Assembly: GCF_003334305.1 (NCBI RefSeq)
Contig: NZ_QOWS01000008.1
DNA: 64,000 nucleotides
From: Escherichia coli
GTDB taxonomy: Bacteria > Pseudomonadota > Gammaproteobacteria > Enterobacterales > Enterobacteriaceae
Direction: 5' to 3' (one strand)
In this document: positions 60,955-64,000 of the stretch, in pieces
Layout of the letters: every line of letters starts with the position of its first letter
Position numbering within the stretch: position 1 is the first letter of the stretch
Translations under genes and position numbers: made by a program
The notes under the pieces: generated by a model
Told to the model about the DNA's origin: nothing
The model's input: only the letters and a program-made list of their open reading frames with translations
The model's database searches: none

Positions 60955-61069
60955 TTTTTTGTCAAATATGAATTTCTCCAGATACGTAAATCTATGAGCC
61001 TTGTCGCGGTTAACACCCCCAAAAAGACTTTACTATTCAGGCAATACATATTGGCTAAGGAGCAGTGAA

Positions 61070-62692
61070 ATGCGCGTTAACAATGGTTTGACCCCGCAAG
61101 AACTCGAGGCTTATGGTATCAGTGACGTACATGATATCGTTTACAACCCAAGCTACGACCTGCTGTATCAGGAAGAGCTCGATCCGAGCCTGACAGGTTA
61201 TGAGCGCGGGGTGTTAACTAATCTGGGTGCCGTTGCCGTCGATACCGGGATCTTCACCGGTCGTTCACCAAAAGATAAGTATATCGTCCGTGACGATACC
61301 ACTCGCGATACTTTCTGGTGGGCAGACAAAGGCAAAGGTAAGAACGACAACAAACCTCTCTCTCCGGAAACCTGGCAGCATCTGAAAGGCCTGGTGACCA
61401 GGCAGCTTTCCGGCAAACGTCTGTTCGTTGTCGACGCTTTCTGTGGTGCGAACCCGGATACTCGTCTTTCCGTCCGTTTCATCACCGAAGTGGCCTGGCA
61501 GGCGCATTTTGTCAAAAACATGTTTATTCGCCCGAGCGATGAAGAGCTGGCAGGTTTCAAACCAGACTTTATCGTTATGAACGGCGCGAAGTGCACTAAC
61601 CCGCAGTGGAAAGAACAGGGTCTGAACTCCGAAAACTTCGTGGCGTTTAACCTGACCGAGCGCATGCAGCTGATTGGCGGCACCTGGTACGGCGGCGAAA
61701 TGAAGAAAGGGATGTTCTCGATGATGAACTACCTGCTGCCGCTGAAAGGTATCGCTTCTATGCACTGCTCCGCCAACGTTGGTGAGAAAGGCGATGTTGC
61801 GGTGTTCTTCGGCCTTTCCGGCACCGGTAAAACCACCCTTTCCACCGACCCGAAACGTCGCCTGATTGGCGATGACGAACACGGCTGGGACGATGACGGC
61901 GTGTTTAACTTCGAAGGCGGCTGCTACGCAAAAACTATCAAGCTGTCGAAAGAAGCGGAACCTGAAATCTACAACGCTATCCGTCGTGATGCGTTGCTGG
62001 AAAACGTCACCGTGCGTGAAGATGGCACTATCGACTTTGATGATGGTTCAAAAACCGAGAACACCCGCGTTTCTTATCCGATCTATCACATCGATAACAT
62101 CGTTAAGCCGGTTTCCAAAGCGGGTCACGCAACGAAAGTTATCTTCCTGACCGCAGACGCCTTTGGTGTGCTGCCGCCGGTTTCTCGTCTGACTGCCGAT
62201 CAAACCCAGTACCACTTCCTCTCTGGCTTCACCGCCAAACTGGCCGGTACTGAGCGTGGCATCACCGAACCGACACCAACCTTCTCCGCTTGCTTCGGCG
62301 CGGCGTTCCTGTCGCTGCACCCAACTCAGTACGCAGAAGTGCTGGTAAAACGTATGCAAGCGGCAGGTGCGCAGGCGTATCTGGTTAACACCGGCTGGAA
62401 CGGCACTGGAAAACGTATCTCGATTAAAGATACCCGCGCTATTATCGACGCCATCCTCAACGGTTCGCTGGATAACGCAGAAACTTTCACTCTGCCGATG
62501 TTTAACCTGGCGATCCCAACCGAACTGCCGGGCGTAGACACGAAGATTCTCGATCCGCGTAACACCTACGCTTCCCCGGAACAGTGGCAGGAAAAAGCCG
62601 AAACCCTGGCGAAACTGTTTATCGACAACTTTGATAAATACACCGACACCCCTGCGGGTGCTGCGCTGGTAGCGGCAGGTCCGAAGCTGTAA
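61070..62692 (+). CDS. pckA: Phosphoenolpyruvate carboxykinase (ATP)
   Basis: Conserved start [36 protein letters not shown] (540 aa), preceded by AAGGAG; kinase P-loop [11 protein letters not shown]. The ORF track adds 23 unsupported upstream codons. Confidence 0.97.
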
Positions 62693-62711
62693 TCAGCTGA
62701 TATCTCATTGA

Positions 62712-62742
62712 CCCCTTATCCAAACGGATAAGGGGTTTTTTT
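62712..62742 (+). terminator. Intrinsic terminator of pckA
   Basis: ccccttatcc-aaac-ggataagggg followed by ttttttt: a perfect 10-bp stem with a 7-T run. Confidence 0.9.
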
Positions 62743-62764
62743 ATATCTGATTAGCTATCAATAT

Positions 62765-62784
62765 GTACACGGTACACTTATAAT
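62765..62784 (+). promoter_or_regulatory. Putative promoter/operator of the toxin-antitoxin pair
   Basis: Tandem hexamers GTACAC-G-GTACAC abut a perfect TATAAT (62779-62784), 25 bp upstream of the toxin ATG; AGGA RBS at 62798-62801. No strong -35. Confidence 0.4.
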
Positions 62785-62808
62785 AATCAATAGACCGCAG
62801 GATGCATT

Positions 62809-63126
62809 ATGTTCACCTTTATTGAACTACAAGGATTTAGCAAACGCCGCCAGTTATTGTTACCTGATGATGAGTTCCGGGCTTTTCAGGAACTACTCAT
62901 TCAAGATCCCACTGCCGGTGACATTATCGCAGGCACAGGCAGTTTTAGAAAAATTCGCTGGAACCGTTCTGGAATGGGGAAACGGGGTGGCATTCGGATA
63001 ATTTATTACAACGTAACACGCAATGGCCGAATTTATCTGGCGTTGATTTATCCTAAAAATGAACAGGATGATTTAACAGAAGAACAAAGAAAGGCATTGA
63101 AACTATTGTCAGAGAAGCTGCTTTAA
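62809..63126 (+). CDS. RelE/ParE-superfamily toxin of the HigB-2 type (toxin-first TA module)
   Basis: 105-aa ORF MFTFIELQGFSKRRQLLLPDDEFRAFQELLIQDPTAGDIIAGTGSFRKIRWNRSGMGKRGGIRIIYYNVTRNGRIYLALIYPKNEQDDLTEEQRKALKLLSEKLL. The blocks G-GxxRKIR, GKRGG-RIIYY and YLLxIYxKNE--DL match my recollection of Vibrio HigB-2-like toxins. Lies upstream of an HTH antitoxin; GC about 40%. Confidence 0.75.
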   Translation: MFTFIELQGFSKRRQLLLPDDEFRAFQELLIQDPTAGDIIAGTGSFRKIRWNRSGMGKRGGIRIIYYNVTRNGRIYLALIYPKNEQDDLTEEQRKALKLLSEKLL

Positions 63127-63184
63127 TGTTGAAGCTCCACAAATTCCACCATGGTCGAAATGCCAACGGAGACATTGAAAACAG

Positions 63185-63481
63185 ATGAAAGATGAATTAT
63201 TTGCTGATCTTCTTGCCAGCGCAGAAGAAATGGTACGCATCGAAAAGGGTGAAGAAACGCCTGAACCAGAGCACGTCCATACTTTTAGCGAGATCGATGT
63301 AAAAGCGATCCGTGAAGCAACGGGTTTACGTCAGCAAGATTTTGCTGTCGCCGTAGGGGTAAGTTATGACCTGGTCAAAAGCTGGGAAACCAAACGCCGT
63401 CAGCCTACCGGAGCACCTCGAAAATTGCTCCTGCTTTTGCAAGCGAATCCTTTCATTATCAATCAATTGAAAACAATCTAA
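63185..63481 (+). CDS. XRE-family HTH antitoxin (HigA-2-like)
   Basis: 98-aa ORF MKDELFADLLASAEEMVRIEKGEETPEPEHVHTFSEIDVKAIREATGLRQQDFAVAVGVSYDLVKSWETKRRQPTGAPRKLLLLLQANPFIINQLKTI; HTH signature in LRQQDFAVAVGVSYDLVKSWE; 58 bp downstream of the toxin gene. Confidence 0.75.
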   Translation: MKDELFADLLASAEEMVRIEKGEETPEPEHVHTFSEIDVKAIREATGLRQQDFAVAVGVSYDLVKSWETKRRQPTGAPRKLLLLLQANPFIINQLKTI

Positions 63482-63484
63482 AAA

Positions 63485-63514
63485 CGGGAGACACCTTCGC
63501 CTCCCGTTTTATTT
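63485..63514. terminator. Bidirectional terminator-like hairpin between the antitoxin gene and convergent envZ
   Basis: cgggag-(10 nt loop)-ctcccg flanked by aaaa upstream and ttttattt downstream. Confidence 0.55.
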
Positions 63515-64000
63515 ACCCTTCTTTTGTCGTGCCCTGCGCCCGCGTTACCGGCACTGGCAGCCAGGCGCGAATGGAAAGCCCGCCCCGCTCGCTGGTGCCA
63601 AGCTCCAGCATCCCGTTATGGTTATCCACGATACGCTGCACAATTGCCAGCCCTAATCCCGTGCCGCTAATGGTGCGCGCACTGTCGCCGCGGACAAACG
63701 GCTGGAACAGGTGCTTACGTTGTTCCGGCGCAATTCCCGGACCGTCATCTTCCACCTGGAACCAGGCGCGATTCGGCTCCGTTCCGCTGCTGACTTTGAT
63801 CCAGCCATTGCCATAACGGGCGGCGTTGACCACCATATTCGCCACCGCGCGTTTGATCGACAGCGGGTGCATTTTCACTTCAATGCTGCCGGGGTAAAGC
63901 GCGGTTTCAATTTCCCGCTCATAGCCACTTTCGGCAGCAATCACCTCACCGAGTACTGCATTAAGATCCGCCATTTCCATCGGCATCTCCTGCCCGGTGC
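63513..64000 (-). CDS. envZ: Osmolarity sensor histidine kinase EnvZ, C-terminal part (CDS continues past the window end)
   Basis: Reverse-strand ORF ending ...GTGLGLAIVQRIVDNHNGMLELGTSERGGLSIRAWLPVPVTRAQGTTKEG (HATPase_c G2 box and the EnvZ C-terminus). Confidence 0.93.
   Translation of the reverse strand, partial: TGQEMPMEMADLNAVLGEVIAAESGYEREIETALYPGSIEVKMHPLSIKRAVANMVVNAARYGNGWIKVSSGTEPNRAWFQVEDDGPGIAPEQRKHLFQPFVRGDSARTISGTGLGLAIVQRIVDNHNGMLELGTSERGGLSIRAWLPVPVTRAQGTTKEG

Follow-up and report, generated by a model that had tools for sequence, protein, structure and literature searches.

Between the convergent genes pckA and envZ, Escherichia coli K-12 has only a short spacer without a gene. 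In the stretch of 64,000 nucleotides (nt) of the E. coli contig NZ_QOWS01000008.1 analyzed here in full (hereafter, the window), the same gap holds two small genes, which raises the questions of what this pair does and how it came to lie between two core genes in some strains and not in others. In the window, the stop codon of pckA ends at 62692 and that of envZ occupies 63513-63515, leaving a gap of 820 bp, compared to 43 bp in K-12, so that the contrast drawn in the first-pass annotation of this DNA holds. The two open reading frames (ORFs) described there are also in place: they are co-directional on the plus strand and encode, in this order, a protein of 105 amino acids (aa) and, 58 bp further on, one of 98 aa. 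As argued below, the locus is very probably a HigBA-2-like operon on the chromosome, encoding a type II toxin-antitoxin pair, and the pattern of divergence around it points to allelic replacement by homologous recombination.

The protein encoded by the first gene carries much of the functional assignment. In a search of the PDB, it matched HigB-2 of Vibrio cholerae with an E value of 1e-23 and 51% identity over 95 residues, and it matches the Pfam family PF06296 (E 1e-5), in agreement with the initial description of a toxin of the RelE/ParE superfamily with HigB-2-like features; the case that this ORF matches no RelE/ParE or HigB family profile, which the first-pass annotation had named as fatal to its interpretation, does not apply. 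PF06296 is the family assigned to HigB-2 in a recent survey and contains V. cholerae HigB-2 itself (PMC11980606). The residues R50, R63, Y81 and K83 of the window toxin align with the catalytic R51, R64, Y82 and K84 of the V. cholerae toxin (VcHigB2) and are invariant in 18 orthologues, and I64-Y67 aligns with the sliding IIYY strand; in VcHigB2, both the four catalytic residues and this strand are important by mutagenesis (PMC5416850). The ORF is intact and represents the allele seen most often in E. coli, WP_000493756.1, and the UniRef name for exactly this sequence is ‘Toxin HigB-2’. Assignment to the HigB type of plasmid Rts1 and K-12 was rejected because neither PF05015 nor PF09907 is matched by the toxin, for which the Pfam scan returned PF06296 only. 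Among the models of PADLOC-DB 2.0, the toxin had no match and the antitoxin only generic helix-turn-helix (HTH) matches, with no defense-system model recovered; in PHROGs, only families of unknown function (5869 and 2104) were matched.

The second gene was originally described as encoding an XRE-type HTH antitoxin, and this is what the searches recover as well: the protein has HTH_31 and HTH_3 Pfam matches at residues 39-76, passes the NCBIfam equivalog model for NadS (NF041265) with 75.1 bits against a cut-off of 60 (E 4e-21, residues 5-96), and has HigA-2 as its best match among solved structures, over the full length (E 5e-5). The V. cholerae antitoxin (VcHigA-2) also matches the NadS model (E 3e-8) but, at 34 bits, remains under the 60-bit cut-off, and NadS is therefore a sister branch of HigA-2. 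The MqsA family, TIGR03830, was considered and rejected: the antitoxin reaches 31.1 bits (E 2e-7), with 61.8 bits required, and only the C-terminal HTH region aligns; besides, the 98-aa antitoxin contains no cysteine and thus lacks the N-terminal CxxCG zinc-binding motif of MqsA. The origin of the name NadS could not be traced in the searchable literature. The NCBI annotation pipeline, PGAP, annotates a separate, expressed nadS gene in K-12 (PMC12350097). This gene, RS26030 in K-12 BW25113, lies outside the window in a strain that lacks the module, and its nucleotide identity to the window antitoxin gene is apparently below about 65%, because a distant blastn search with the antitoxin gene did not find it.

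The predicted structure agrees with these assignments. AlphaFold (AF2) was run on a toxin-linker-antitoxin fusion with 18 paired orthologues, and the resulting model, with a mean predicted local distance difference test (pLDDT) score of 81, was compared to solved structures with Foldseek. The toxin half superimposes on HigB2 chains with a template modeling (TM) score of 0.81-0.88 and a root-mean-square deviation of 1.7-2.5 A, and the antitoxin half on the C-terminal domain of HigA2 (5J9I) with a TM score of 0.76-0.83. At its N-terminus, the antitoxin is modeled as a helix (residues 3-20) and a strand (31-34), both with pLDDT above 85, which is the helix-then-strand shape that VcHigA2 takes on its toxin (PMC5416850). 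By homology to the V. cholerae pair, from which toxicity, RNA cleavage, neutralization and DNA binding are inferred, the first gene product would be a small RelE-fold nuclease that enters the ribosomal A site, cuts translated mRNA and stops growth. The N-terminal segment of the antitoxin, approximately 35 residues, would fold on the toxin as a helix and a strand, switching it off, and the C-terminal HTH domain would dimerize and bind a site in the promoter, such that the operon represses itself.

A candidate for this binding site is present. The first-pass annotation had proposed a promoter proper to the pair, with a tandem GTACAC repeat beside a perfect TATAAT. The TATAAT is there; the repeat, a GTACAC-g-GTACAC stretch at 62765-62777, is better read as a putative inverted-repeat operator, TGTAC-N3-GTACA, which appears tandem because GTAC is self-complementary. 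Of 27 related loci from other species, 26 have the motif ahead of the toxin gene, and a comparison of the upstream regions shows no variation in the arms, TGTAC and GTACA, with free variation at the three bases in the middle. The core GTAC-N3-GTAC yields 44 matches in 27 × 120 nt upstream of toxin orthologues versus a single match in 147 kb of flanking sequence. Across the 64 kb of the window, it occurs once, at the promoter of the module, which is unremarkable by itself, so that the evidence for the operator is its conservation across genera. Relatives outside the pckA-envZ site show a more elaborate arrangement, with two operator copies about 30 bp apart (29-31 bp, that is, about three helical turns) that bracket a TTGAnT -35 element; the pckA-envZ loci retain a single copy, the one that lies between the -35 and the -10, and their -35 elements are poor. 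In this comparison, which covered loci L004-L023 over the 120 nt upstream of the toxin start, distant marine relatives (L020-L022) have spacings of 23, 24 or 42 bp. The two-operator spacing suggests cooperative binding by two antitoxin dimers, an arrangement that would have been lost in the pckA-envZ lineage. The features of the locus are collected in Table 1.

Table 1. Features of the pckA-envZ gap and of the adjoining end of pckA (positions in the window)
Feature	Position	Strand	Basis and details
Divergent 3' part of pckA, left arm of the candidate recombination patch	62000-62693	+	sliding identity to K-12
Variable segment	62694-63480 (787 bp)	.	alignment with the K-12 locus (L001); presence/absence among E. 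coli strains
pckA intrinsic terminator hairpin	62710-62737, T-run to ~62742	+	terminator scan; 12-bp stem (6 GC pairs), 4-nt loop
Predicted antitoxin operator, inverted repeat TGTAC-acg-GTACA	62764-62776	+	conserved motif; within the spacer of the promoter, 2 bp before the -10
-10 hexamer TATAAT	62779-62784	+	read from sequence; a -10-like hexamer follows the operator in orthologous loci as well
Toxin ribosome-binding site AGGA	62799-62802	+	read from sequence; ATG 6 nt downstream
higB-2-type toxin gene, 105 aa, predicted ribosome-dependent mRNA endonuclease	62809-63126	+	homology
higA-2/nadS-type antitoxin gene, 98 aa	63185-63481	+	homology, model; N-terminal toxin-binding segment, C-terminal HTH-XRE domain
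Bidirectional terminator of the module and the convergent envZ	63481-63510	.	terminator scan; 13 pairs, A-run 5', T-run 3'

Several observations weigh against the assignment to a self-repressing HigBA-2 operon or, at least, against a simple transfer of what is known from V. cholerae. The Pfam score of the toxin is modest, 26 bits, and no NCBIfam model matched this protein. The start codon of the antitoxin gene is preceded only by a distant GGAG, 13 nt upstream. As for the promoter, the consensus scan calls no sigma-70 promoter for the module and there is no recognizable -35 element, because the sequence at that position, TATCAA (62756-62761), matches only 2 of the 6 consensus bases, so that the promoter originally proposed retains its -10 hexamer but not the rest; the sole call of the scan, a promoter-like sequence on the minus strand at 63482-63455, was rejected as being at chance level. 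The solved V. cholerae operator is TGTACGC-N5-GCGTACA (PMC11006873), and the half-sites of the window operator are 6 bp closer together; furthermore, of the four residues through which VcHigA2 contacts bases, three, R68, E71 and N72, are replaced by D62, K65 and S66 in the window antitoxin (PMC11006873). DNA binding is thus not simply transferable from the solved VcHigA2 complex, because both the half-site spacing and three of the four contact residues differ. The AF2 model is that of a fused construct built from a shallow alignment of 18 sequences, and the searchable literature yielded no experimental work on this E. coli module.

The question of provenance can be approached from the borders of the variable segment. 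Where the window has this segment, K-12 has an unrelated 43-bp spacer. The AT-richness noticed by eye in the first pass is evident, with 42.9% GC in 62743-63512 (41.5% in the toxin gene and 45.1% in the antitoxin gene) compared with 52.3% in the whole window and 53.5% in pckA. The pair was also said to sit between two terminator hairpins, and both of these are real; the left one, which the repeat finder reports as inverted repeat I1, is however part of the variable segment and not a pre-existing K-12 terminator, as K-12 lacks it and the same hairpin is found upstream of the module in Escherichia albertii, Citrobacter and Kluyvera. The right hairpin, in which the repeat finder detects a 10-bp perfect inverted repeat, begins right at the stop codon of the antitoxin ORF and is common to the window and the empty K-12 site. 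A search of 62500-63700 against Rfam with E values up to 1 gave only four matches, all well under the gathering scores and treated as chance, and neither the toxin nor the antitoxin gene has a paralogue elsewhere within the window.

Beyond the segment, identity to K-12 is 99.5-100% at 61000-62000, drops to 93.5-97.5% in sliding windows over 62000-62693, and is back at 99.6-100% from 63481 onwards. The last 694 bp of pckA are 95.4% identical to K-12 (4.6% divergent), with all differences synonymous and an identical PckA protein. This profile points to a patch of foreign ancestry of about 1.5 kb, approximately 62000-63480, that ends in conserved genes and was probably brought in by allelic replacement through homologous recombination; because the patch is flanked by K-12-identical sequence, no integrase or mobile-element gene is needed. 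The route of arrival, which the first-pass annotation had left without an explanation, is thereby largely accounted for.

Of 5426 complete E. coli genomes, all of which have the flanks, 1325 (24%) carry the segment; the first-pass annotation had named, as fatal to an insertion, the case that K-12 or most E. coli genomes carry both ORFs at this site, but K-12 does not and neither do some 76% of the complete genomes. In all carriers, the segment is chromosomal, at the same site and in one copy: none of the 5426 genomes has the module on a plasmid, and the distant blastn search with the antitoxin gene found a second copy in no E. coli genome. Well-known lineages fall on both sides: K-12, O157:H7 and ST131 strains have the empty site, and the occupied one is seen in SMS-3-5, in Nissle 1917 and in numerous isolates from animals and humans. 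Within E. coli, the module has diverged by 1.1-2.4% compared with 2.6-4.6% for the adjoining 3' end of pckA, and in E. albertii, where both proteins are identical to those in the window, the proportion of synonymous differences (pS) is 0.05-0.10 in the module versus 0.30 in the flank. The module, being less diverged than its flanks, therefore appears to have moved among Escherichia lineages after the flanks had diverged, and we propose that it would be exchanged among these lineages by homologous recombination via the conserved pckA and envZ flanks, with no dedicated mobility gene.

On a longer time scale, the history of the site is less one-sided, and ‘inserted’, the word chosen in the first pass, goes further than the evidence. 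The site is occupied also in two species each of Citrobacter and Kluyvera and in E. albertii, and all of these loci share with the window the terminator hairpin ahead of the module and the single-operator promoter. Between E. coli and Citrobacter, the pS of the module is 0.70-0.81, at least as high as that of the flanks (0.47-0.65), as would be expected under vertical descent. Since Citrobacter and Kluyvera have the module at this site, with a divergence as deep as that of the flanks, insertion is unproven, and the K-12 state could be a loss. The occupied state could accordingly be ancestral to Escherichia, Citrobacter and Kluyvera, with the 43-bp empty allele being a later deletion that itself spread, a scenario that concerns only the history of the locus and to which we give a substantial chance, albeit somewhat short of even. 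It is at odds with the lack of any trace of the module in the K-12 spacer (local alignment score of 10, equal to the shuffled mean of 9.6), with the lower divergence of the module than of the flanks within Escherichia, which indicates recent lateral spread, and with the relocation of the unit, related copies of which are found at other sites in other genera, namely, upstream of dusA, next to a gene for an Rpn nuclease, and in a prophage-like region, where the unit adjoins a gene for phage virion morphogenesis. It may be that the site has been occupied for long and lost repeatedly. The locus can serve as a worked example of the spread of a toxin-antitoxin module by homologous recombination via core-gene flanks, without a mobile element.

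Some additional features of the region deserve mention. Positions 62000-62693 of pckA are unusually polymorphic in E. coli, with the window or K-12 differing from each other sampled strain by 2.6-4.6%, almost all of it synonymous, and the first 900 bp of the gene are near-identical in the window and K-12; this polymorphism may be the scar of repeated recombination around the variable segment. In E. albertii NBRC 107761 (NZ_BBMY01000013.1; locus L003, 3708-4079), approximately 240 bp of the envZ 3' end are followed by two short pckA fragments, corresponding to window positions 62028-62100 and 62621-62694, in place of the remainder of envZ, an arrangement that reflects either a local rearrangement or an assembly chimera. 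The ‘partial’ allele of strain BS-04 (NZ_CP172819.1), with 40% coverage, was considered as a deletion intermediate and rejected, the assembly being poor and ridden with homopolymers: in this nominally complete genome, the module region (locus L034, 3150-3640) is broken into long runs of each of the four bases, yhgE carries a pseudogene flag, and the degradation looks like a sequencing or polishing artefact. Strain HS-02, with the neighboring accession NZ_CP172818.1, has a similarly truncated match.

The pattern of selection on the two genes bears on whether the operon is active. Between genera, synonymous sites are saturated, with pS of 0.7-0.9, and the proportion of nonsynonymous differences (pN) is 0.10-0.20 in the toxin gene and 0.04-0.14 in the antitoxin gene; such low pN values at saturated pS imply strong purifying selection on both genes, which is stronger on the antitoxin. 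In Edwardsiella, for instance, the antitoxin is about 95% identical to that of E. coli compared with 79% for the toxin. Decay is one-sided: of the 27 species representatives, 5 have a broken toxin gene beside a whole antitoxin gene, and at no examined locus does an intact toxin gene stand without an intact partner, with the proviso that these counts come in part from draft assemblies, in which some frameshift errors are possible. Loss of the toxin with retention of the antitoxin, and never the reverse, is what addiction logic predicts for a toxin that is active, as this one would be. The orphan antitoxins (loci L024-L027 and L029, with Phytobacter ursingii in L027) stand next to a toxin stub or a frameshifted toxin gene and are full-length NadS proteins, 61-94% identical to that in the window; in Kluyvera sichuanensis (L029, 3001-3090), where the locus again lies between pckA and envZ, the stub results from an internal deletion that keeps the reading frame. 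Within E. coli, Nissle 1917 (locus L031, 4609-4926), FCI5 and CU42ET-1 (L039 and L040) share a toxin allele with D21K and a stop codon in place of E22 (window positions 62872-62874), next to an intact antitoxin gene. All three of these alleles also have an operator deletion of 5-7 bp that leaves a single half-site, and the class accounts for about 5 of 60 evenly spaced carriers, or roughly 8%. The pairing of the toxin stop with the operator deletion would be expected if an unregulated active toxin is harmful.

The same data invite the thought that the antitoxin matters more than the toxin. Under this scenario, the main role would belong to NadS, which would regulate transcription on its own or, in an anti-addiction function, neutralize HigB-2-type toxins that arrive on plasmids or phages, with the linked toxin being secondary. 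The antitoxin is indeed 2-3 times more constrained than the toxin and is intact wherever the toxin has decayed, nadS is annotated separately even in K-12 (PMC12350097), and distant HigB-2-family toxins are common on plasmids (900 records) and occur in a few records of the phage collection; in a tblastn search of plasmids with the toxin, 306 Acinetobacter records were recovered at about 40% identity. The plasmid toxins, however, are less than 60% identical to that of the window, with the exception of two records, at least one of which is chromosome-sized, and cross-neutralization is unproven; the operator motif occurs in the window only at the promoter of the module itself; and the survival of orphan antitoxins is equally predicted by ordinary addiction logic. 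We therefore consider it improbable that NadS is the main player. That the antitoxin has a second, toxin-independent role, be it protection from incoming HigB-2 toxins or regulation of other genes, is a separate proposition, which seems unlikely albeit worth entertaining, on the basis of its constraint, its survival without the toxin, including in Nissle 1917, its compact predicted site and the nadS gene of K-12. Finally, that the pair is an inactive relic, with a toxin no longer poisonous and an operon kept by drift or for the antitoxin, appears highly improbable: the E22 stop in the Nissle 1917-type strains (about 8% of carriers), the broken toxins in 5 of the 27 species representatives and the lower conservation of the toxin might be invoked in its favor, but the window toxin ORF is intact, with all four catalytic residues, and belongs to the most frequent allele of the species, the pN/pS ratio between genera lies far below 1, and in E. 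coli the toxin stop travels with the operator deletion, as if an unregulated active toxin were harmful.

The pair is a routine, already annotated accessory toxin-antitoxin module of a structurally characterized family. RefSeq labels the two products ‘type II toxin-antitoxin system RelE/ParE family toxin’ and ‘nadS’, and E. coli pan-genome papers list HigB-2/HigA-2 as accessory genes (PMC10304320); a search of the literature by pckA/envZ context, RefSeq protein accessions and NadS recovered no paper on this E. coli locus. The structure of the family, its catalysis, neutralization and operator binding are already understood from the V. cholerae pair. What the present analysis adds is modest, namely, a clear operator consensus TGTAC-N3-GTACA for the enterobacterial NadS branch and the recognition that the lineage of the probiotic strain Nissle 1917 carries a toxin-null, operator-deleted allele; together with the recombination route, these may be new in detail, and none of them is surprising.

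Among the known systems, those of plasmid Rts1 from Proteus vulgaris (HigB/HigA) and of K-12 (HigBA, YgjN/YgjM) have, like the window module, the toxin gene in first place, a ribosome-dependent mRNase of the RelE superfamily as toxin and an antitoxin with an HTH domain. Their toxins, however, belong to the Pfam families PF05015 and PF09907, not to that of the window toxin (PMC11980606), and the architecture and neutralization mode of their antitoxins are different as well (PMC5416850). HigBA2 of the Acinetobacter baumannii plasmid pAB120 has a toxin of the same family as the one here, but is carried on a plasmid and has a far more divergent sequence; its operon, in reverse order, encodes an RNase toxin and an antitoxin that represses its own promoter, and it stabilizes plasmids (PMC5906591). 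MqsR/MqsA of E. coli is also toxin-first, and the HTH domain of MqsA has the next-closest fold to that of the window antitoxin (3FMY, TM score 0.77); yet MqsA has a zinc-binding CxxC N-terminal domain, which the window antitoxin lacks, and the window toxin is not of the MqsR family. MqsA binds a short palindrome with a 3-bp center, which the close spacing of the half-sites in the predicted window operator resembles.

The closest parallel is HigB-2/HigA-2 of V. cholerae (VCA0468/VCA0469; PDB 5JAA, 5JA8 and 8A0X). The toxin comes first in both, and the two toxins have the same R/R/Y/K active site and IIYY strand; the antitoxins have the same layout, an N-terminal neutralizing helix and strand followed by a C-terminal HTH-XRE domain, but are only about 25-29% identical. 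The two operators, the predicted one in the window and the solved one, have the same outer TGTAC...GTACA bases, and both overlap the promoter. The genomic settings are dissimilar: the V. cholerae pair is a cassette of the superintegron, whereas the window module lies in a gap between core genes and would move by recombination through its flanks.

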